Shown here: positions 8,588 through 57,267 of the stretch, one piece after another
Layout: the number at the start of each line of letters is the position of its first letter
Position numbering within the stretch: position 1 is the stretch's first letter
DNA from: Patescibacteria group bacterium
GTDB taxonomy: Bacteria; Patescibacteriota; Patescibacteriia; Patescibacteriales; UBA12465
Direction: 5' to 3'
Assembly (NCBI GenBank): GCA_041651195.1
Contig: JBAZJR010000006.1
Location: 1 to 62,768, forward strand
Length of the DNA: 62,768 bases
The notes under the pieces: generated by a model
Database searches by the model: none
Told to the model about the DNA's origin: nothing
The model's input: only the letters and a program-made list of their open reading frames with translations
Translations under genes and position numbers: made by a program

Positions 8588-9679
8588 TTAAGGGCCGGTG
8601 GTTATTAGATCGACTAATTTAGCGCTTTGTTTTTCCCAATTGAATTCCCGGATCGCCCTGATGCGTCCTTGCTCCCCTAATCGGCGCCTCAACTCCGGGC
8701 CAGCGGCTAAGCTCGTTATCGCTGCTCCGATCTCGACCGGATCTTCCGGATCCACCACTAAGCCGTTATAAGCGTCGATGACGGCATCGCTAACGCCGCC
8801 GGCGCGTCCCGCGATCACTGGCTTGCCGCTCAGATTAGCCTCAAGATAAACGATCCCGAAGCCCTCGAAATCGCCGTGGATATCGCGGGCGGGCATAATA
8901 AAGATATCGCATTTCTTAAGCCAGATCCATTTTTCTGTTTCCGTCAGCTCGCCCAGGAAGATAATCTTATTCGCCAGCCTAGCTGGCACTAAGCGGCGCA
9001 AATATTCTTCCTGCGGTCCGCGGCCGGCAAGGAAATAAACCAGGTTATCAGCTAGCGCGGGCGGCAGCTGATCTAAGGCTTTAATAGTCTGGTCAAAGCC
9101 CTTGCGCCGGATCAGGCGGCCGAGGCTGAATAAGACAGTCTTGCCCGACAGATCATAGCTCATTTCTAATTCCAGCAATTCATTAGGACTGACTATCGGC
9201 GCACCTCCTGGTACGCCCGGGTTGACGACGGCTATTTTGTTCTTTGCCGCAGGATATAATTCTTCAGTTTGGCGGGCGACATAACTGTTGGCGCAGATAA
9301 TCTTGTCGGCTCGCCCGAGGATTAGGCCGGCCAGCCATTTTTTCCTACCTGACTTCAAGGCGGAACTTAAATCTAAGCCGTGCAGGAAAACTCCGTATTT
9401 GAAAGACTGGAACCAAGACAGGAGCCAGGCAACGGTGCCAAGCGGCAAGATCTGCCCGACCAGGACGTAATCAATCTGATTTTTCTTAATCTTACGCCGC
9501 AAAAGGCTGATTGCCGGACGCCAGGCAAAAAAATCACGGCCGCGCAAAAGTTCGCCTCGGTTATTATTCAGGATCACAAGCCTTTCAGCTAGCGGCCAGT
9601 GGCTAGCTAAATTACCATAATAATTAGCGATGCCGCCTTTGAAAGGTGGAAATTCAAGGGTAAAAAGCAAGGTTTTCAT
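8588..9679 (-). CDS. glycosyltransferase family 4 (GT-B, GT1/GT4 type)
   Basis: 363 aa. C-terminal GRLIRRKGFD ... EGFGIVYLEANLSGKPVIAGRAGGVSDAV (E-x7-E region). ATGA overlap with the flippase gene. Confidence 0.85.
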   Translation of the reverse strand: MKTLLFTLEFPPFKGGIANYYGNLASHWPLAERLVILNNNRGELLRGRDFFAWRPAISLLRRKIKKNQIDYVLVGQILPLGTVAWLLSWFQSFKYGVFLHGLDLSSALKSGRKKWLAGLILGRADKIICANSYVARQTEELYPAAKNKIAVVNPGVPGGAPIVSPNELLELEMSYDLSGKTVLFSLGRLIRRKGFDQTIKALDQLPPALADNLVYFLAGRGPQEEYLRRLVPARLANKIIFLGELTETEKWIWLKKCDIFIMPARDIHGDFEGFGIVYLEANLSGKPVIAGRAGGVSDAVIDAYNGLVVDPEDPVEIGAAITSLAAGPELRRRLGEQGRIRAIREFNWEKQSAKLVDLITTGP

Positions 9680-49896: not shown

Positions 49897-49933
49897 AAAA
49901 AACCACTCCGGATTCCGTCGGAGTGATTTTTTA
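49897..49933. terminator. bidirectional terminator between the HTH gene and hup
   Basis: A-run, stem CACTCCG / CGGAGTG (about 49904-49926), then TTTTTT. Confidence 0.7.
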
Positions 49934-49993: not shown

Positions 49994-50275
49994 CTAGAGG
50001 ACCGCGTCCTTGACTGCCTTGGCTAAGCGGAATTTAACTACGGTTTTCGCCGGGATCTTGATGGTTTCGCCGGTCGCTGGATTGCGGCCTTCTCTAGCCT
50101 TGCGATGAGCTTTAACTAATTTGCCGAAACCTGGGACAACGCATTCGCCGCTTTTCTTCGCTTCTTTGTAGACGAAAGCCGCTAAATTATCCATAAAACT
50201 GGCGGTTTCCTTCTTGCTTAAACCGGTCGCTTCCGCTAAAGAGGCGATCATCTGTGACTTTGTCATTTTTGACAT
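49994..50275 (-). CDS. hup: DNA-binding protein HU
   Basis: MTKSQMIASLAEATGLSKKE..GFGKLVKAHRKAREGRNPATGETIKIPAKTVVKFRLAKAVKDAV. The track start at 50311 is TTG. An ATG at 50275 or 50266 is preferred. Confidence 0.9.
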   Translation of the reverse strand: MSKMTKSQMIASLAEATGLSKKETASFMDNLAAFVYKEAKKSGECVVPGFGKLVKAHRKAREGRNPATGETIKIPAKTVVKFRLAKAVKDAVL

Positions 50276-50411
50276 AATTTTATTATGGGATCTTAGAAAT
50301 AAATAGCTCAAAGCTATTTAATAGGAAGATCCGTTTAAATAATTACTAACCTTTAAATATAGACTGATTCATTTTTAAATAACAAACAAGAAACTCAATG
50401 TCTATGGGGAT

Positions 50412-50440
50412 ATTATAGCATACCTAATAAAATATGCCAA
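50412..50440 (-). promoter_or_regulatory. TTGGCA-17-TATAAT promoter with TGn extension (TGCTATAAT)
   Basis: Minus strand reads TTGGCAtattttattaggtaTGCTATAAT, just after the SET gene stop. A second candidate (TTGAGC-18-CATAAT) sits 6 nt before the ATG at 50275. Confidence 0.45.
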
Positions 50441-50452
50441 TAAATAAAGGGC

Positions 50453-51211
50453 TTATTTGAATCCAAGGAGCTCGCGGCCGCTAAGGCCCCAGATAACCAG
50501 ACCTAAACGTCGGAAACGGATAGGCCTGCCTGCCTCGCGCAGCGTCCGGCGCAAAACCGCTAAGGTCGGCAAAGTTTCTGCCTCGGATAGCAAAGGTTTA
50601 GCTGATAAATTAGCGAATAAATCATAAGCCGCGTCATCCTTGATCCGCCTCGGATAAGTGCCTAAAGCGGTCAAGACCGCGCCAGGCTTAAGCAATTTAA
50701 AGGCCGCTTGCCGCCGCGCTTCTCGGCGACATAAGCGGCCATAGCGTTTAAGCTTGGCGACACTTACATACATCGTGCCGCGGCAAACCGGGCTGCCGCA
50801 GGAGCATTGGTGCAAAAAATCTTTCTGCTTACGAGCCTCGGCTTGATCGGCATCAAAGCTATAATCGATCGTCAATTCTTCGCCCGGGAAAATATGCCGC
50901 AAGGCGAAATAAAGAGTATGGCCGAGATAATAGTAGCTATCGCAATTCGGCGAACAAGAGTGATTGATCAGGTGCACGCCCGGCGCCTTGATATCCAGTG
51001 GGAAAATCGATAAGCCGTTATCAGCATAATCCATCGCATAGCAAGCATGTCCGTACTTATTCTCTAGCCGGACCGCGGCTTTATCAGGGACTAAGCGGCC
51101 CAAGTAATCGCCGATGACCGTGCCGGCCGCTATGCCGCGCCGCGCGAAAACGCCGCGCCCTTTCCGGCCCGCAGATTTGATCTGATAAAAATCGGGAGTC
51201 AATAGGAACAT
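50453..51211 (-). CDS. SET-domain protein (putative protein-lysine methyltransferase) with a ~100-aa basic C-terminal extension
   Basis: 252 aa. GRGVFARRGIAAGTVIGDYLG, HLINHSCSPNC, GEELTIDYSF, post-SET CSCGSPVCRG. Confidence 0.8.
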   Translation of the reverse strand: MFLLTPDFYQIKSAGRKGRGVFARRGIAAGTVIGDYLGRLVPDKAAVRLENKYGHACYAMDYADNGLSIFPLDIKAPGVHLINHSCSPNCDSYYYLGHTLYFALRHIFPGEELTIDYSFDADQAEARKQKDFLHQCSCGSPVCRGTMYVSVAKLKRYGRLCRREARRQAAFKLLKPGAVLTALGTYPRRIKDDAAYDLFANLSAKPLLSEAETLPTLAVLRRTLREAGRPIRFRRLGLVIWGLSGRELLGFK

Positions 51212-51215
51212 AACT

Positions 51216-51764
51216 TTAATCTTTTAATTTCTGGCTACCCCTTTTCCCCCGCCTCATCTCAGGCCACAGCCTACCCCGATTGCGCCGCCGAAATTCCGGA
51301 TCAAGCCAATCCCGTCCGGTCACCACCCCGCGGCAATCCACCGCGCCGCAGGCGCATTTCATCTTGAACTCGGCATCCGTGAACATGAAGCCGTAATCGA
51401 TGAAGAGCTCTTCCCCTTTCTTGATCGCCCGCGCCGCCACGAAATTGCCTTGCTGGTCGTAAGCGATATTAGGCGCGCAGCTATGATTAAAATACCAGGA
51501 AATACCCATATTATTCAGGTCGGCCGGCACGATATACTCGTCGTCTTCCAAGACGCAGAAATGTTTTATCTTTTCGCGCGTCGTCTTGTCCAGCTTCCGG
51601 AAATCCCGCCGGCCCAAGATAACGACTTCCTCCGGCGCGTCAACATCAGCGACAACTTCTCCGCGCCTGATATTCCGGACGGCGAAAGTCGCGACCTCGC
51701 CAGGTAAAGCCCGGGAGGGACGGAGTTCGAACATCAGCCGCGGAATCTTTTTGACTTTCTTCAT
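51216..51764 (-). CDS. SET-domain protein (putative protein-lysine methyltransferase)
   Basis: 182 aa. YFNHSCAPNIAY, GEELFIDYGF, post-SET CACGAVDCRG. ATGA overlap with the upstream GNAT gene and a 4-nt gap to the next SET gene. Confidence 0.8.
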   Translation of the reverse strand: MKKVKKIPRLMFELRPSRALPGEVATFAVRNIRRGEVVADVDAPEEVVILGRRDFRKLDKTTREKIKHFCVLEDDEYIVPADLNNMGISWYFNHSCAPNIAYDQQGNFVAARAIKKGEELFIDYGFMFTDAEFKMKCACGAVDCRGVVTGRDWLDPEFRRRNRGRLWPEMRRGKRGSQKLKD

Positions 51765-52654
51765 AATTTAATAAATTTATATTGCGGTTCCTTGTCCAGA
51801 TGCCAGGCCTCCTTCCAATTACAACCACCTAAAGAAAAATTAAAGGTCTTCAGTCCCAGGCTGATCGCCAGTTCCAGATTAGCTTTAGTCAAATATTTAA
51901 AAGCATCGCTCACCCGGCTGATATCCGAGCCGACAATCAAGTAATAGTAGATATTATTATAAACGATCGATAAAGAAGCGGCCAGCTTTTCGCCGTCTAT
52001 TTCGACTGTAATGAGGTGCCAAGCCAAGGATAATCTGACCAGGTCACGGAAAGGCTGGCGCTCCGCTTCCGTCCGCAGATAAGATTCCGCGCCGAAGCGC
52101 CGGACGTTGAGATCCATCAATAATTCCAGGTCCTTAAAATCATTATGGATGACCTTGACCGCGTGCTCGCGTTCCAAGACCGTAAAGATCCGCTTGAAAT
52201 TAGAACGCTTGTGGGCGCTGGGGAAAGCCACGGTCAGATAGTCGCCGAAACTATGAAAACGGCTGATATCTAAAAAATAAATATAGTCTTCCAAGGGCAA
52301 GGAACGAGTAAAATCATCCTGGCCGGAGATATCGAAGATCTTAGTGACGGCTGGCGCCAAACGGAAGAGCTCAGGCACCAGATGCTCATAGCCAGCTTTG
52401 ACGAAAGGCCGGTTCTCTTCCATAAAGTTCTCCGCAAAAAATTCATAGGCGGCGAGAAGCTCGTTATATTGCAGAGGTAATAACCCGACTGCCTGGCCAT
52501 CCTCATAGATGGCATAAAAATGGAGCGGCTGGACGTCATGGCAATAAAAACAATAACGAAAATCCCAGAGATCGTAGAGCGACCGCTGGGGCGACAATTT
52601 ATTCCATAGGCGTTTGGCCTCCGCCAAATCGTGAAAAATCTTGATTTCGGTCAT
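51761..52654 (-). CDS. GNAT-fold acyl/peptidyl-transferase, CelD/BcsL or FemAB-like
   Basis: 297 aa. The overall pattern (LWNKL..SLYDLWDFRYCFY ... LITVEIDGEKLAASLSIVYNNIYYYLIVGSD ... FNFSLGG) resembles two-lobed Acetyltransf_6-type proteins. Called from memory of the family. Confidence 0.55.
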   Translation of the reverse strand: MTEIKIFHDLAEAKRLWNKLSPQRSLYDLWDFRYCFYCHDVQPLHFYAIYEDGQAVGLLPLQYNELLAAYEFFAENFMEENRPFVKAGYEHLVPELFRLAPAVTKIFDISGQDDFTRSLPLEDYIYFLDISRFHSFGDYLTVAFPSAHKRSNFKRIFTVLEREHAVKVIHNDFKDLELLMDLNVRRFGAESYLRTEAERQPFRDLVRLSLAWHLITVEIDGEKLAASLSIVYNNIYYYLIVGSDISRVSDAFKYLTKANLELAISLGLKTFNFSLGGCNWKEAWHLDKEPQYKFIKL

Positions 52655-52685: not shown

Positions 52686-55154
52686 TCACATGATATTCGG
52701 CTGGAGATGATAATAGGGCGGATTATCCTTATAGCGTTTGATCGCCAGACGGATGATCTCCTCCAGAAAATCGCCATAATCCAGGCCGATAACTTCCGCC
52801 GAAGCGGAAAATGTCCCCTCGGCGTCCAGCGACGGATTAGGATTGAGCTCCAGGACGTAAGGGTTATTATTCTTGTCCACCCGGATCTCGATCCGGCCGT
52901 AATCATGGCAATCCAGGATATTATAAGTATCTAGAGCGATCTCGCCCAGGAGAGCTTCTAATTTCTTATTGATATTCTTTGGCGGACGCTGGACGATGAT
53001 CTTCTTATATTCCCCGCCATCCGTGTATTTTGATTCGAAAGGATAAATATGCCAGAGATTCGGCGGCAGCTCGTCGAAGATGGAACGCGCGAGCGGCAAT
53101 ATCCGGAGATCATCCTCCTCGCTCCCGATGATCGGCACATCGTATTCGTCGCCGTCGATATACTCTTCGATCAGGGCCGGCCGGCCGATTTCTTTCAAGA
53201 CCTTCTCTAATTGCCGATAGAGCTCCGCCTTATTCCGGACGACCGAATCGTTGGTGATGCCGATTGAATTGTCGGTATTGGCCGGTTTGACGATAAGCGG
53301 ATATTTCAAATCGTCGCGGATATCATCATCCAGAGAATAGACGTAGTCCCATTCCGGCGTCGGGATCTTATGATAGCTCAAGAGCTTCTTGACGCGGATC
53401 TTGTCGATGCACAAGCCGAGAGTAAAGGGGTTGGAGCCGGTATAAGGGATCTGCAAGGTATCGAGGATGGAAGCCACGTGCGGCTCCAAGAGGCTGGAAT
53501 TATTGATCCGTTCGCAGACATTGAAGACAAGATCCACGTCGCTATTCTTCAGGTCATTGAAAGCCTGCGGCAGGTCGTTGAAATCGAAAAAGCTGATCTT
53601 ATAGCCCCGTTCCCTAAGATTTTTCTCGATATCCTTGCCGATGACCGTCAGATCATTCTCCACGGCGGTTTCCTGGTCGGCCGCGTTCTCTTCGTAGAGA
53701 TTGCAGGCGATGCCGATATGCAGATTGCGCTGATTAGAGATGGCCATGCGCCTGATCTTCTCGATCTTAGAGCGACGCTTCAAGATGTCGACATTGATGG
53801 CGGAAACGGAAAATGGCGAACGGCGCGTCGTCTTGCCGAGAGAAGAAGCGGGATGGAACCGCGCTACGTCATAGCTGATATATTTTTTGGCTTCGTGGAG
53901 ATTATCTTGCGCGTCCAGGGGATTAGAGCCGGAAACCAAGATCCAGCCCAGATATTCATAGCCGTCCGGCGGCAGCAAGACCGAATCGCCGATCCTCTTC
54001 TCGAACTGGAATTCCTTGACGAAAGGCCGGCGCTTCAGATCGTCGCCGATCTCCAAGTTGACGATGATCCCGGAATGATCGGAAGAAAAAGTATCGGCGA
54101 TCAGATATTCATAGGGGCCAGTCGGAAATTCGAATTTCGGGATATAGACGCCGAGCGCGATCTTCAGGAGGTTCTCGATCAGGTCGATATGCCAAGCCGC
54201 CTTGACGCTCGGATAGACCTCATCGCCGCCGAGGCGTAGATTTATTTCCAAGGGGACAGGGCCGCGCGGCGTGGATTTCGCTTCAAAATGGATGCAGCCG
54301 TTCAGGATCCCTAATTTTTCCAAAGTCTCGTCGGCCATCGCCAAAAGCTCGGTTTGATTCTTAGCGGGCAGGCTAGAGGGAGTCATGCGCGTCGTCTCGA
54401 TAAAAAACGGCTCCTTAGTCTTACCATTATCGGAAATGCCGCAAAACTTGATCTTCCCGTTCTGGATCAGGATGTCCATATCGACTTCATCACCATCGAT
54501 ATATTCCTCGACAAAGACTTCGAGGCCGTCATTCAGGGCAGACTCGATCTTCGGAGAGATGTCTTTCTTGATGTAATTATAGCTCTCGCGCAACTCTTCT
54601 TCGTTGTCGACCTTGACGACGAAAGCGCTAGCCGCGCCATAGGCGGGCTTGACGACCAAGGGAAAATTGAAAGATTTAACGGTCTCATCCAGATCCCTGG
54701 CGCTTTTCAACTCCCTGAATTTAACGGCCGGCAAATTATTGGCCGCGCAAAATTCCCGCAAAGCGTATTTATTGCGGACACGATTAGCTACTTTATAAGA
54801 CGTGCTGATCAATCGATATTTATCGGCGATCTTCGCGGTCAAGAGGACGTCGTCTTCCAAGAAAGTAATGACGCCGTCCAGCTTGACGGCCGGATTGAGC
54901 TTGAAAAATTCATCTAAGGCGGCTAAGGCGGCCGGAAAATTCAGGGTATCAGCCGTCACGCAATGATCGACATAGGGCTGGAAACTATTAGCTTCTTTGC
55001 TTAAGATGACAATCTTTAACCCCAGATTCTTGACTTTCCGGATAAAGGCTTTTTTCGAATGGAGCGGATCATTTGCTCCCGCCGTATTGACGATCAGGAT
55101 TGTCTTGTTAGCGAGCGGGCTACGGTGCGAGTCTGCATGGCCATTGCCGTTCAT
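52686..55154 (-). CDS. fusion of two ATP-grasp ligase modules (L-amino-acid-ligase-like N-half, D-Ala-D-Ala-ligase-like C-half)
   Basis: 822 aa. N-half: FPLVVKPAYGAASAFVVKV, FVEEYIDGDEVDMDIL, LEINLRLGGD. C-half: LHIGIACNLYEE, PYTGSNPFTLGLCIDKIRVKKLL, YPLIVKPANTDNSIGI, IEEYIDGDEYDVPIIG, VLELNPNPSL. Confidence 0.7.
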   Translation of the reverse strand: MNGNGHADSHRSPLANKTILIVNTAGANDPLHSKKAFIRKVKNLGLKIVILSKEANSFQPYVDHCVTADTLNFPAALAALDEFFKLNPAVKLDGVITFLEDDVLLTAKIADKYRLISTSYKVANRVRNKYALREFCAANNLPAVKFRELKSARDLDETVKSFNFPLVVKPAYGAASAFVVKVDNEEELRESYNYIKKDISPKIESALNDGLEVFVEEYIDGDEVDMDILIQNGKIKFCGISDNGKTKEPFFIETTRMTPSSLPAKNQTELLAMADETLEKLGILNGCIHFEAKSTPRGPVPLEINLRLGGDEVYPSVKAAWHIDLIENLLKIALGVYIPKFEFPTGPYEYLIADTFSSDHSGIIVNLEIGDDLKRRPFVKEFQFEKRIGDSVLLPPDGYEYLGWILVSGSNPLDAQDNLHEAKKYISYDVARFHPASSLGKTTRRSPFSVSAINVDILKRRSKIEKIRRMAISNQRNLHIGIACNLYEENAADQETAVENDLTVIGKDIEKNLRERGYKISFFDFNDLPQAFNDLKNSDVDLVFNVCERINNSSLLEPHVASILDTLQIPYTGSNPFTLGLCIDKIRVKKLLSYHKIPTPEWDYVYSLDDDIRDDLKYPLIVKPANTDNSIGITNDSVVRNKAELYRQLEKVLKEIGRPALIEEYIDGDEYDVPIIGSEEDDLRILPLARSIFDELPPNLWHIYPFESKYTDGGEYKKIIVQRPPKNINKKLEALLGEIALDTYNILDCHDYGRIEIRVDKNNNPYVLELNPNPSLDAEGTFSASAEVIGLDYGDFLEEIIRLAIKRYKDNPPYYHLQPNIM

Positions 55155-55179: not shown

Positions 55180-55977
55180 TTATTTGATATTATAAGTCAC
55201 GCCGATTTCAATAACTACTTCCCGATCGCCGGACGGCGTGCTCGGCGAGACCGCGGCCGCGGCGCCGAGTCCTCCCTTGCCATAATCCGCGGCGCCGTAG
55301 ACCGGTAGCGGCGAAACCAAATTTTCATACCAACCGGTGATCTCCTTGAGCTCGACGCCGGCAGTATCTGCTAAAGCGACGCTCTTCCATTTAGCGTCTT
55401 CGATCGCCCGGATGCGCGCCTGCTGCTTCAAGTCGTTCATATTAGCGGCGTCGAAACTCAGATTATTGATCTGATTGGCGCCGGCCCGAGAGGCGGCAGC
55501 GATCACTTTGCTTAATTGGTCCGGCGCCTGATCATAGCCCGTTACTTTAATTACGAGCTGCTGATTGGCGTTATAGCCGGAAACCGTAGAAATATTATCT
55601 TTGTAATCGTACTGCGGATACAATGAATAATTCTGAGTCTGGATATTTTCCGGAGCGATGCCGGCGGCCTTAACCTCTTTGATGATACTAGCGACCTTGG
55701 CGTTCAACTGGTCCAAAGCTTCTTCCGGCTTAGCGACCTTGTCGATCTGGACGCCGAGAGTGACGATCGCGATATCCGGCGCGTAAACGATCCGGCCCTG
55801 GCCGGTCACTGTCACCATCCTCATCTGCGGATTGACGATCCGGTCGCGCAAGATAGCGACCGTGATGATGCCAGCCAAAAGGATCAAACCGACGATGATG
55901 ATCGCGGTCCGACCATGGCCTTTACCGCAACAAGATTTCAGCTCGTCGCAGCAATTATTCTTTTTTTCTTCTGACAT
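55180..55977 (-). CDS. SIMPL (DUF541) domain protein with N-terminal membrane anchor
   Basis: 265 aa. Cys-rich cytoplasmic tip (NNCCDELKSCCGKGHG), one TM helix, then the SIMPL core (VTVTGQGRIVYAPDIAIVTLGVQ ... REVVIEIGVTYNIK). 25-nt gap to the ATP-grasp gene. Confidence 0.75.
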   Translation of the reverse strand: MSEEKKNNCCDELKSCCGKGHGRTAIIIVGLILLAGIITVAILRDRIVNPQMRMVTVTGQGRIVYAPDIAIVTLGVQIDKVAKPEEALDQLNAKVASIIKEVKAAGIAPENIQTQNYSLYPQYDYKDNISTVSGYNANQQLVIKVTGYDQAPDQLSKVIAAASRAGANQINNLSFDAANMNDLKQQARIRAIEDAKWKSVALADTAGVELKEITGWYENLVSPLPVYGAADYGKGGLGAAAAVSPSTPSGDREVVIEIGVTYNIK

Positions 55978-56006
55978 AAAAATATAATTATTTATTAATT
56001 GTTTAC

Positions 56007-56015
56007 ATTATAGCA
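56007..56015 (-). promoter_or_regulatory. extended -10 element TGCTATAAT
   Basis: Plus strand reads attatagca. 29 nt upstream of the SIMPL ATG. It is the only promoter-like element seen for the 55977->50453 gene string. Confidence 0.5.
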
Positions 56016-56059
56016 CCTTATTAAAAAACTACAATAAAATCCACTGAAAAACGCCTAGA

Positions 56060-56788
56060 TCAACGCGCCAGATAGCGCTCTCTCGTCCGTGGCTCAAGGC
56101 GCTCGATAGCATAGCGCAAAGCGGTCCGCGGCATCGCGCGATAATGTCGGTCCAGGAATCTTTTCAATTCGGCTTCGCTCACCCGCTTGCCCGTTTCTCT
56201 CAGCATCCAGCCGACCGCTTTATGGATCAGATCCTCTTTATCTTTCAGCAGTTTTTTGGCGATCCAGAAAGTTTCAGCACTCCGGCCGGCTTTGATAAAG
56301 GCGTAGGTCGCGACCATCGCCATGCGCCGCTCCCAAAGATTCCGAGAAGCCGCCAGGCGATCCAGTCGCCCGGTTTCCCCGGTCAGGCACAAAAAATCGC
56401 CCAAGATCTTATAGACCGAAAGGTCGACCAGATCCCAATTATTGATCCGGTTCGTATTCCTCAGATAGAAGTCGACGATCGATTTCTTGTCTTCTCGCTC
56501 TTTAGCCCCCTCGTACTGGAAAACCATGATCAATAAAGCGACCAGGCGGAATTCGTGGAATTTGCTGTTTAAGAGGCTTTGCAGGGCTGGACGGTCCAAA
56601 TCAGCATACTGTTTGGCAATTTGGCGCTGGAGCGGCACCGTGAGGCCTAAAAACACGTCTCCGGCGCCATATTGGCCGGGGGCCGTCTTGAAAAAACGCT
56701 GCAAGATAGAGCTGCGCGAGCGGCTGGCCTTACTCTTTAATTCGGTGCTAATCAGATCGATCGGGCTGATCTTTTTCTTGGAAGGCAT
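56060..56788 (-). CDS. DNA alkylation repair protein (AlkD/AlkC-like HEAT-repeat glycosylase family)
   Basis: 242 aa. RFFKTAPGQYGAGDVFLGL, INNWDLVD, NLWERRMAMV, HKAVGWMLRE. Confidence 0.8.
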   Translation of the reverse strand: MPSKKKISPIDLISTELKSKASRSRSSILQRFFKTAPGQYGAGDVFLGLTVPLQRQIAKQYADLDRPALQSLLNSKFHEFRLVALLIMVFQYEGAKEREDKKSIVDFYLRNTNRINNWDLVDLSVYKILGDFLCLTGETGRLDRLAASRNLWERRMAMVATYAFIKAGRSAETFWIAKKLLKDKEDLIHKAVGWMLRETGKRVSEAELKRFLDRHYRAMPRTALRYAIERLEPRTRERYLAR

Positions 56789-56796
56789 AAACGGAT

Positions 56797-57267
56797 CTAA
56801 TAATGATAAATCTTCTTATTGATTATCGTCGTGGCCCGATAGATCTGCTCCGCTAAAACGACACGGGCGAGCTCGTGCGGAAAAGTCAGGGGCGACAAGG
56901 AAATCTGCGGATATTGGGCGTAGAGGCGATCACTGAAACCTAAAGCGCCGCCGACTATCAAGATCAGGGGCTGCTTCTTGTTTAAGAAGGCGGCAAATTC
57001 CGGCGAACTAAAATTTTGTCCCCGTTCAGCCAGAAGGTAAACCGCGGCCGGACTCTGTTTCCGCTCCATCTTCAATAAAAAATTTTCAATGGTTTCCGCT
57101 TCAAAATTTTTTGCCTGTACCTGATTATTCCCAGCGAAAGGCACGCTCGGCAGCTCCACAACTTTCAAGCGGGCGTAAGGACGCAAGCGTTTCAGGTAAT
57201 CGGAAAAAAGCGCCTGATATTGGCGATCTTTAAGCTGGCCGATGGCCAGGATAGTGATATCTAACAT
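56797..57267 (-). CDS. rlmH: 23S rRNA (pseudouridine1915-N3)-methyltransferase RlmH
   Basis: 156 aa. SPOUT fold signature LILIVGGALGFS ... SLSPLTFPHELARVVLAEQIYRA. Confidence 0.9.
   Translation of the reverse strand: MLDITILAIGQLKDRQYQALFSDYLKRLRPYARLKVVELPSVPFAGNNQVQAKNFEAETIENFLLKMERKQSPAAVYLLAERGQNFSSPEFAAFLNKKQPLILIVGGALGFSDRLYAQYPQISLSPLTFPHELARVVLAEQIYRATTIINKKIYHY

Follow-up and report, generated by a model that had tools for sequence, protein, structure and literature searches.

Two SET-domain genes in an ATP-grasp ligase operon of Patescibacteria: candidate tailoring methyltransferases next to an HU gene

SET domains are best known as histone lysine methyltransferases; what they do in free-living or symbiotic bacteria is largely unexplored. 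In the window studied here, the whole 62.8-kb stretch of DNA analysed from an ultra-small Patescibacteria bacterium, two SET genes, SET1 and SET2, stand in tandem beside hup, the gene for the nucleoid protein HU, which raises the question of what such a pair of enzymes would methylate. The neighbouring gene suggests HU, and a first reading of the DNA from its letters alone (the sequence-only reading) had named it as a plausible substrate. Gene contexts in related genomes point to an ATP-grasp amide ligase, accompanied by Fem-like transferases, as the conserved SET partner in Patescibacteria, and not to a nucleoid protein. This removes a tempting HU-methylation story as unsupported, and substrates are now better sought among what a widespread but uncharacterised ligase pathway of reduced genomes makes than among chromatin-like proteins. 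The analysis also defines two old SET lineages and a new domain associated with SET.

Layout of the locus and properties of the SET proteins

Two tandem SET genes of 182 and 252 aa, 4 nt apart and followed by hup after 140–180 nt, had been described in the sequence-only reading, and the open reading frames bear this out: the two genes are joined as TAA-AGTT-ATG, and hup begins 177 nt beyond SET2 if read from an ATG or 141 nt if read from a TTG (Table 1). Upstream, the stop codon of a GNAT gene overlaps the ATG of SET1 by 4 nt (ATGA), and 31 nt separate the GNAT gene from a preceding double ATP-grasp gene. Neither a promoter nor a terminator was predicted anywhere inside the stretch from the ATP-grasp gene to SET2. 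The arrangement suggests an operon of ATP-grasp ligase, GNAT, SET1 and SET2, in that order, which would be co-transcribed and would end in the two translationally coupled SET genes. All sequencing runs that contain this DNA are metagenomic DNA runs. The GNAT overlap and the double ATP-grasp gene did not figure in the sequence-only reading. The adjoining SIMPL/DUF541 gene may be co-transcribed with the ATP-grasp gene; it occurs in the syntenic clade only, being missing from L007, L019, L021, L026 and L092, and was rejected as a module member owing to that restriction.

Table 1. Positions of the SET genes, their neighbours and associated signals in the window
Feature	Position	Strand	Remarks
SIMPL/DUF541 gene	55180..55977	-	PF04402, 135 bits; 25 nt upstream of the ATP-grasp gene
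Fused double ATP-grasp ligase	52686..55154	-	822 aa; conserved core of the module
GNAT, Acetyltransf_6 (CelD/Fem-like)	51761..52654	-	297 aa; PF13480
SET1, short-SET family	51216..51764	-	182 aa (ORF list); post-SET CxCx4C cluster; basic 32-aa tail
SET2	50453..51211	-	252 aa (ORF list)
SET2 SET and post-SET region, residues 1-146	50774..51211	-	PF00856, 65.8 bits
SET2 C-terminal domain, residues 147-252	50456..50773	-	conserved, basic, family-specific
hup promoter (predicted)	50412..50440	-	TTGGCA-17-TGCTATAAT, directly after the SET2 stop
hup (HU)	49994..50275	-	93 aa; PF00216, 94.7 bits; separate transcription unit
Terminator 3' of hup (predicted)	49897..49932		

Both SET genes appear real and look catalytically intact. 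SET1 scores 48.4 bits against PF00856 and, like SET2, exceeds the Pfam SET gathering threshold of 22.4 bits. Across 28 homologues of SET2, residues G18, G20, N83, C86, N89, C90, Y117, C136, C138 and C143 are invariant, the Zn-cluster cysteines (C86, C136, C138 and C143) among them; E111 and E112 are likewise invariant, and H84 and S85 are conserved in at least 90%. The alignment of the SET1 family has N93, N99, E118, E119 and Y124 as invariant positions, with H94 and S95 conserved in at least 90% of its members. The post-SET cluster of SET1, formed by NHSC and CACGAVDC, is missing in the short-SET relatives of L008, L021, L092, L028 and L033, with which SET1 is placed in the tree. The sequence-only reading had raised the prospect of folds lacking a SAM pocket or the catalytic Tyr; both proteins keep the SAM and catalytic motifs.

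The closest known enzymes are eukaryotic histone lysine methyltransferases of the MLL/SET1 and NSD/SETD2 types (SET plus post-SET domains), which gave the best profile matches for both genes and the best fold match for SET2. In searches of the PDB, the SET2 profile matched KMT2A at an E-value of 1e-26, and the SET1 family profile matched the SET chains of KMT2C (MLL3) and KMT2A (MLL1) at 1.5e-18. An AF2 model of SET2 (pLDDT 92.8, pTM 0.90) returned the SET domains of MLL1, MLL3, NSD1 and SETD2 as top Foldseek matches, those of MLL1 and MLL3 with an E-value of 8.6e-11 and target TM-scores of 0.69–0.72 over about 148 columns. Shared with MLL-type enzymes are the GxG motif (the second Gly of which is replaced by Ala in the SET1 of the window, GEVATFA), the NHxCxPN and ELxxDY motifs and the CxCx4C post-SET cluster. 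SET1 and SET2 differ from those enzymes in that they are stand-alone bacterial proteins of 182 and 252 aa that have neither chromatin-reader domains nor partners of the WRAD type; in addition, the basic C-terminal domain of SET2 is novel, and both genes lie in a ligase operon. From the intact motifs of both proteins, and for SET2 also from the fold, we infer SAM-dependent methyltransferases that carry out methyl transfer. A further point of comparison is BurB of Burkholderia thailandensis, a SET-domain S-methyltransferase of free Met (PDB 9l4t; PMC12542666). Like SET1, BurB is a stand-alone bacterial SET protein of about 180 aa; it is itself encoded in a biosynthetic cluster and has a small-molecule substrate. 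In profile searches, both window proteins come closer to MLL-type lysine methyltransferases than to BurB: the SET1 family profile reached BurB at an E-value of 5.7e-12 over 92 positions, as against 1.5e-18 for MLL-type chains, and BurB was not among the matches listed for the SET2 profile against the PDB.

The Arg/Lys-rich C-terminal extension of about 100 aa that the sequence-only reading had noted in SET2 is indeed basic (23 of its 106 residues are K or R, pI 11.3), and it is so in 22 of 24 homologues, with a median net charge of +10.5. However, it is a conserved and confidently modelled domain instead of a loose tail: Y186, P187, R221 and G228 are invariant, and the domain modelled alone has a pLDDT of 88.8. 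It had no match in Pfam or, by sequence profile, in the PDB, and Foldseek against the PDB returned zero matches at E≤10. Among 1.84 billion proteins, no more than 111 representative clusters contain it, and in nearly all full-length matches it occupies residues ~138–245 of proteins of ~245 aa. It is a new, undescribed SET-associated domain with no known fold match. This domain is probably a substrate-recognition module, and its basic character would also suit nucleic-acid or nucleoid binding.

SET1 and SET2 share 34% identity over 137 aa (E 2e-14). In the tree, a long branch (support 99/96) separates them, and each clusters with relatives from other phylum-level lineages; a recent tandem duplication is ruled out by this branch and by the cross-lineage grouping of each gene. 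As judged from these comparisons, SET1 and SET2 represent two SET families that are ancient, deeply divided and repeatedly found as pairs. Such recurrence fits the earlier suggestion that the paralogues have different roles, and the two proteins probably act at different sites or produce different methylation states. The companion suggestion of a heteromer fares worse: an obligate SET1–SET2 heteromer is unlikely, because many relatives keep SET2 without SET1 (L003/L011, L010, L012, L015 and L018).

Recurrent linkage of SET genes to ATP-grasp ligases

The 822-aa ligase joins an N-terminal half of the L-amino-acid-ligase type to a C-terminal half of the D-Ala-D-Ala-ligase (Ddl) type. Pfam assigns ATP-grasp_4 (103 bits), LAL_C2 and Dala_Dala_lig_C (125 bits), and the score against the NCBIfam Ddl model, 192 bits, is under the cut-off of 243. 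By sequence, the closest PDB entries are, for residues 39-409, the L-amino acid ligase BL00235 (3vot, E 9e-29) and, for residues 506-809, Ddl (3r23, E 1.4e-25). Both halves are like small-molecule amino-acid ligases (BL00235, BacD/YwfE, Ddl) and not like the protein-modifying RimK/TTL enzymes. Unlike known LAL/Ddl ligases, the protein fuses the two types in one polypeptide, and SET genes follow it. Sequence identity of the ligase is 78–90% within the clade and 49–65% in distant Patescibacteria. The GNAT matches Acetyltransf_6, as in Fem-type transferases (PF13480, 43.3 bits; cut-off 22), had no match in a PDB sequence search, and is probably an aminoacyl-tRNA-dependent transferase. It is missing in L005/L014, and in L093 it is present without any SET.

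Across Patescibacteria, a double ATP-grasp gene adjoins SET2 in independent arrangements, about six in number, that differ in both gene order and orientation. The arrangement is GNAT-ATPg-SET2 in L019 (Magasanikbacteria) and ATPg-GNAT-(c6)-SET2 in L007, L022 and L024; ATPg and SET2 are divergent in L026, and SET2 is flanked by Ddl-like genes in L031. The short SET enters the operon itself in L092 (Komeilibacteria), as ATPg-c6-shortSET-decarboxylase, and in L021 (Gribaldobacteria), as ATPg-shortSET-c6-epimerase; in the latter, SET2 is convergent, lying ~2 kb past the operon end and ~4.4 kb from the ligase gene. In the window, the SET genes share the orientation of the ATP-grasp and GNAT genes and are tightly spaced with them, and L007, L019, L021, L022, L024, L026, L031 and L092 show the linkage again in rearranged form in distant lineages; these are the features by which we recognise a peptide-building operon. 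About 6–7 of ~12 independent SET2 contexts are linked to ATP-grasp genes, where chance would place a single-copy gene within ±10 kb in ~2% of cases if the genome is assumed to measure ~1 Mb. Furthermore, the short-SET family stands beside a PurD-like ATP-grasp gene at eight metagenome loci, two of which also carry an LPG_synthase_C-type aminoacyl-transferase gene, and some operon variants include an enolase-superfamily (MR_MLE_C) epimerase-like gene. Pfam and PDB sequence searches gave no match for the neighbour families c6 (~456 aa) and c53 (~465 aa). Pairwise comparison revealed a weak likeness of c53 to the PurD-like ATP-grasp (E 1e-4), and the ligase linkage of L008 is therefore counted tentatively.

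No ATP-grasp gene lies within 10 kb in roughly half of the SET2 contexts (L009, L020, L023, L025, L027 and L032), and Microgenomates carry SET pairs without the ATP-grasp. The ligase family comprises at least 891 clusters versus 227 and 58 for the SETs, and L093 has the ligase without SETs. Since the ligase is much commoner than the SETs and occurs without them, the SETs are dispensable and may have another target. No description of a SET/ATP-grasp operon in Patescibacteria/CPR was found in the literature searched. L007 is flanked by genes for spermine synthase and AdoMet decarboxylase, and the L092 operon includes an Orn/DAP/Arg decarboxylase gene; a link of the SETs to polyamines was not adopted, as it would involve these two contexts only.

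Proposed role and the case for a protein substrate

We propose that the SETs are optional tailoring N-methyltransferases in an undescribed ATP-grasp ligase/GNAT pathway to which HU is not tied, a reading to which we give roughly even odds (a probability of about 0.5). The ligase, together with the GNAT where present, would most likely make either a short peptide or amide-linked compound or a peptide attached as decoration to some larger acceptor, and the SETs would then N-methylate a lysine-type amine on this product as an optional tailoring step. In favour of this role stand, besides the operon layout, the invariant motifs, the MLL-like SET2 model and the recurrent SET/ATP-grasp linkage, the small-molecule type of both ligase halves and the precedent for non-protein or peptide SET substrates in BurB and GigC. 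GigC of Epichloe festucae is a SET enzyme that mono- and dimethylates Lys of the cyclic epichloecyclin RiPPs (PMC10540207); it resembles the present case in being encoded in a peptide biosynthetic cluster with a short-peptide Lys as target. It differs in being fungal and in acting on a ribosomal peptide, whereas the peptide presumed here would come from ATP-grasp and Fem-like enzymes.

More tentatively, the long SETs, with their basic recognition domain, and the short SETs could be interchangeable tailoring N-methyltransferases of ribosome-independent peptides in Patescibacteria. ATP-grasp ligases and GNATs dependent on aminoacyl-tRNA would assemble these peptides, or would decorate the envelope or other acceptors with peptides. 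If true, this would extend bacterial SET chemistry from proteins and the single small-molecule case of BurB to lysine-type amines on the products of non-ribosomal ligases.

Another abundant basic protein, whether ribosomal, a translation factor or a small nucleic-acid-binding protein, could be the target instead, with the ligase link incidental or reflecting joint modification, for example amino-acid addition and methylation. To our knowledge, every well-studied SET enzyme that has a post-SET Zn cluster acts on proteins. A target of this kind would fit the conserved basic C-terminal domain of SET2 and the many SET2 loci without ATP-grasp. In Microgenomates and L020, long-family SETs lie 0–4 kb from a gene for a basic RGG/Lys-rich zf_Tbcl_2 protein, which is immediately downstream of the SET in L036 and L043 and also stands beside the ligase operon of L092. 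However, the 62.8-kb window contains no zf_Tbcl_2 gene, a candidate gene for a protein substrate is not conserved beside the SETs across the ligase-linked contexts, and the ligase halves are of the small-molecule type. We consider a basic protein target unlikely, and tailoring of a ligase product remains the reading that we prefer.

The hup neighbour and the least probable explanations

The adjacency of hup recalls two characterised systems, in which Chlamydia pneumoniae cpnSET methylates Hc1 and Methanosarcina mazei Go1-SET methylates MC1-alpha (PMC3980110), as the sequence-only reading had correctly noted. By analogy, the SETs would be HU lysine methyltransferases, with the basic tail of SET2 holding the enzyme on the nucleoid. 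SET1 and SET2 resemble cpnSET and Go1-SET in being small prokaryotic SETs with, in this window, a nucleoid-protein gene next door; SET2 also adjoins hup in 12 related loci, its C-terminal domain is basic, and no terminator was predicted in the SET2–hup interval. Nevertheless, all 12 loci belong to a single clade in which more than 16 kb are collinear, from rlmH through a surface-protein gene, with HU 82–97% identical, and they consequently count as one observation. HU is absent within 8–10 kb at all 14 of the other loci with full-length SET2, and likewise from Microgenomates, non-Patescibacteria and every other SET locus examined. A survey of SET/hup co-occurrence in relatives, which the sequence-only reading had suggested, thus places HU within 10 kb of SET2 in one syntenic clade only, and a conserved genomic link to HU, by which a nucleoid-protein SET would be recognised, was not found. 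Moreover, hup has a long leader and a strong predicted promoter of its own. This promoter has 11 of 12 consensus matches and an extended -10 TG (TTGGCA-17-TGnTATAAT), and it is invariant in nine relatives while the spacer around it varies. The translational coupling of the SETs is to the ligase and GNAT genes instead. Adjacency therefore does not carry the case for HU as the substrate: its methylation by the SETs is very unlikely, and hup is, as far as promoter and gene contexts indicate, a separately transcribed bystander that is not functionally tied to them.

Regulation of the pathway, with the SETs methylating the ligase, the GNAT or themselves, would suit the tight operon coupling with these genes and the recurrent ATP-grasp adjacency, but the ligase is 78–90% conserved with or without SETs, which are often missing, and we regard this explanation as highly improbable. 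Scarcely credible is export of the SETs as effectors into the host of a presumably episymbiotic bacterium, as in Legionella and Chlamydia: known bacterial SETs include secreted effectors (PMC3980110) and SET2 has a weak match to the NCBIfam LegAS4 model (E 5.8e-4, far below the cut-off), but neither SET N-terminus has a hydrophobic signal sequence when the translations are read directly, and the operon couples the SETs to cytoplasmic ligase genes and contains no secretion genes.

As for the HU reading frame itself, it would span 49994-50311 if read from the TTG start; the ATG at 50275 is more likely to be the start, because relatives align from the same ATG.

The SET genes and their predicted operon

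On the minus strand, the genes for a SIMPL/DUF541 protein, a fused double ATP-grasp protein (the ligase), a Fem/CelD-like GNAT, SET1, SET2 and HU follow one another with gaps of 25, 31, -4, 4 and 177 nt, the negative value being an ATGA overlap of the GNAT gene with SET1. An ORF check reproduced what the sequence-only reading gave for the coordinates and gene sizes, for the 4 nt between the SET genes and for the 140-180 nt that precede hup. From rlmH down to the ligase gene (window 55180-57267, minus), the gaps are 8, 82 and 25 nt and a consensus scan predicted no minus-strand promoter or terminator; the transcription unit whose last gene is SET2 may therefore extend upstream to rlmH. The literature searched does not describe this operon. 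The source names of close homologues point to a Falkowbacteria-like member of the Patescibacteria.

Features of the window and of related loci (L numbers; fetched from genomes and metagenomes around homologues)
Feature	Position or locus	Strand	Remarks
SIMPL/DUF541 protein	55180-55977	minus	
Ligase, two-module ATP-grasp protein	52686-55154	minus	822 aa
GNAT, Acetyltransf_6	51761-52654	minus	297 aa
SET1	51216-51764	minus	182 aa; Pfam SET 48.4 bits (threshold 22.4)
SET2	50453-51211	minus	252 aa; Pfam SET 65.8 bits (threshold 22.4)
HU (hup)	49994-50311	minus	TTG start; more likely 93 aa, ATG at 50275
hup promoter, predicted	starts 12 nt past SET2 stop	minus	TTGGCA-17-TGCTATAAT (TTGGCA-17-TGnTATAAT); near-consensus, 11/12 matches, consensus scan
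GNAT-ligase-SET2	L019		Magasanikbacteria
Ligase-GNAT-(c6)-SET2	L007, L022, L024		
Ligase, short SET, c6, enolase-superfamily epimerase-like gene; convergent SET2	L021		Gribaldobacteria
Ligase divergent from SET2	L026		Parcubacteria
Ligase, c6, short SET, Orn/DAP/Arg decarboxylase	L092		Komeilibacteria
Single Ddl-like genes flanking SET2 on both sides	L031		Roizmanbacteria
Short SET and PurD/GARS-like ATP-grasp	L095:8001-10667; L099, L097, L100, L101, L102, L108, L111		
c6 family	L026:6007-7377; L021:11702-13075	minus	
c6 family	L007:6582-7988; L092:4941-6311	plus	
Two tandem ~465-aa paralogues, 56% identical	L008:5184-7997	plus	directly upstream of SET2; short SET convergent
Spermine/spermidine synthase and AdoMet decarboxylase	L007:1576-3126 and 8868-9284		flanking module
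Orn/DAP/Arg decarboxylase	L092:6742-8079		inside ligase operon
zf_Tbcl_2 protein	L036:487-942; L043:10554-10856		directly downstream of SET gene
zf_Tbcl_2 protein	L020:11960-12454; L028:3409-3870; L033, L037, L038, L041		near long-family SET
zf_Tbcl_2 gene, 52 aa	L092:2002-2160		divergent to ligase/short-SET operon

SET1 and SET2 share 34% identity (E 2e-14). Aligning 28 SET2 homologues (36-67% identity) shows the GxG (G18, G20), NHSCxPNC (N83, H84, S85, C86, N89, C90) and EELxxDY (E111, E112, Y117) motifs and the post-SET cysteines C136, C138 and C143 to be invariant or nearly so. SET1 itself carries the CxCx4C cluster and shares with its family and that family's short relatives the invariant N93, N99, E118, E119 and Y124 and the nearly invariant H94 and S95. 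The first ~148 residues of the SET2 AlphaFold2 model (pLDDT 92.8, pTM 0.90) superpose on the SET domains of MLL1, MLL3, NSD1 and SETD2 (Foldseek, E down to 8.6e-11), and KMT2-type SET domains are the first match of both family sequence profiles (E 1e-26 and 1.5e-18). The conserved motifs, the MLL-like SET2 fold and these profile matches therefore argue against a missing SAM pocket or catalytic tyrosine, the defect that the sequence-only reading had named as fatal to its proposal.

The Arg/Lys-rich extension noticed earlier in SET2 is indeed basic (residues 147-252; 23 K+R among 106, pI 11.3), and this "tail" is a domain: it is conserved family-wide, with Y186, P187, R221 and G228 invariant, and its model is confident whether built as part of the whole protein or in isolation (pLDDT 88.8 in isolation). 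Neither Pfam, nor a PDB sequence search, nor Foldseek against the PDB (E<=10) returned a match for it, and among 1.84 billion representative proteins a profile search recovered it in only 111 clusters. Nearly all full-length matches are ~245-aa proteins that carry it at positions ~138-245, fused to a SET2-type SET. Of 24 homologues, 22 have a basic domain (median net charge +10.5, pI 9.9), with a mildly acidic SET core (median pI 5.9); this composition suggests an acidic binding partner for the domain.

In a maximum-likelihood tree, 56 SET domains fall on either side of a long branch (support 99/96). SET1 groups with the short SETs from L008, L021 and L092 and with whichever gene comes first in the Microgenomates tandem pairs; SET2 groups with the second gene of these pairs. 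Short and long SETs are paired in tandem (window clade; L028, L033), convergently (L008) or a few kb apart (L021). Local duplication was therefore rejected as the origin of the pair, which is ancient and recurrent. This fits distinct roles for SET1 and SET2, including the differing specificities suggested previously; the heteromer suggested alongside is unlikely in an obligate form, since SET2 often occurs without SET1 (L003/L011, L010, L012, L015, L018).

Association with ATP-grasp ligases

A double ATP-grasp gene 49-65% identical to that of the window lies beside SET2 in several rearranged contexts from distant lineages; in L021, SET2 is ~2 kb beyond the end of the ligase operon and ~4.4 kb from the ligase gene. 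Such linkage occurs in ~6-7 of ~12 independent SET2 contexts, against ~2% expected by chance when a gene is present once in a genome assumed to be ~1 Mb and distances up to +/-10 kb are counted. In a metagenome scan seeded with short SETs, these adjoin a divergent PurD/GARS-like ATP-grasp (PF01071, 55 bits; ~440 aa) in 8 loci with varying order, an LPG_synthase_C/DUF2156-type aminoacyl-transferase gene lying between the two in L095 and L099. Thus, the theme of ATP-grasp ligase, aa-tRNA-type GNAT transferase and SET recurs with non-orthologous ligases. The module is flexible: the GNAT is missing in L005/L014, and L093 has ligase and GNAT and no SET. The ligase family spans 891+ clusters, versus 227 for SET2 and 58 for SET1.

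The N-terminal half of the ligase matches the L-amino-acid ligase BL00235 (E 9e-29) and BacD, and the C-terminal half matches Ddl (E 1.4e-25), yet under the NCBIfam Ddl cut-off. Both halves resemble small-molecule ligases, unlike the protein-modifying RimK or TTL enzymes. We propose, with a probability of about one half, that SET1 and SET2 tailor the ligase product. The ligase, with the GNAT where present, would build a short peptide or amide product or decoration; SET2 would recognise it through the basic C-terminal domain; and the two SET enzymes would N-methylate a lysine-type amine, differing in site or degree. Precedents exist for SET enzymes acting on non-protein substrates: the bacterial BurB S-methylates free methionine (PDB 9l4t; PMC12542666), and the fungal GigC acts on a cyclic RiPP, dimethylating one of its lysines (PMC10540207). 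Counting against this tailoring role, half of the SET2 contexts and also the Microgenomates SET pairs have no nearby ligase. A protein target bound to nucleic acid would be just as compatible with the basic SET2 domain, and methylation of a basic protein other than HU is an alternative that we consider unlikely.

HU adjacency and the hup promoter

The suggestion of HU as substrate had drawn on its adjacency and on chlamydial and Methanosarcina SET proteins that methylate nucleoid or chromatin proteins; this precedent is correct, as cpnSET methylates Hc1 and Go1-SET methylates MC1-alpha (PMC3980110). The correct HU sequence was searched by tblastn against 93 genomic and metagenomic loci, which surround related SETs and homologues of SET2 or of the ligase. 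HU lies within 8-10 kb in only 12 of them (L001, L003, L005, L006, L010-L015, L017, L018; HU 82-97% identical). All 12 are collinear with the window over >16 kb, in the order rlmH, DNA-alkylation repair, SIMPL, ligase, GNAT/SET, HU, sigma factor, DUF5667 and large surface protein, and hence count as one evolutionary observation. By tblastn, HU was absent from all 14 other full-length-SET2 loci (L007-L009, L019-L027, L031, L032), from Microgenomates SET loci and from ~50 SET loci of other phyla. The sequence-only reading had named a lack of SET-hup enrichment in related genomes as the first refutation of its HU proposal; with no such enrichment outside one syntenic clade, that proposal is not supported. 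HU is a bystander to the SET genes, and its methylation by them is highly improbable.

Aligned over 9 relatives, the 180-240 nt spacer is variable apart from the predicted hup promoter, which is invariant. In the spacer of the window (50276-50452, minus), this promoter lies ~135 nt upstream of the ATG, which implies that the hup transcript would carry a long 5' leader; a second conserved spacer block, CCCCATGCTAAAATT, directly abuts the ATG, and the consensus scan predicted a strong terminator downstream of hup.

Other neighbouring genes

The c6 protein (~456 aa) follows the double ATP-grasp in four lineages, and an MR_MLE_C enolase-superfamily gene comes next in L021 and L026. The c6 protein itself gave no match in Pfam or by PDB sequence search; it contains PFSFGKES, a motif that looks PP-loop-like by eye, and a C-terminal CxxCxKC. 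The ~465-aa paralogues of L008 gave no Pfam match and show a weak likeness to PurD-like ATP-grasp (pairwise E 1e-4). Polyamine- or diamine-related genes lie beside the module in two contexts (L007, L092), too few for a link. No zf_Tbcl_2 gene lies in the window. In Microgenomates and L020, a basic protein of ~155 aa is encoded 0-4 kb from the long-family (SET2-side) genes; it combines a PF23477 zf_Tbcl_2 treble-clef zinc finger with an RGG-rich N-terminus and a Lys-rich tail, and is a possible substrate of the SET proteins.
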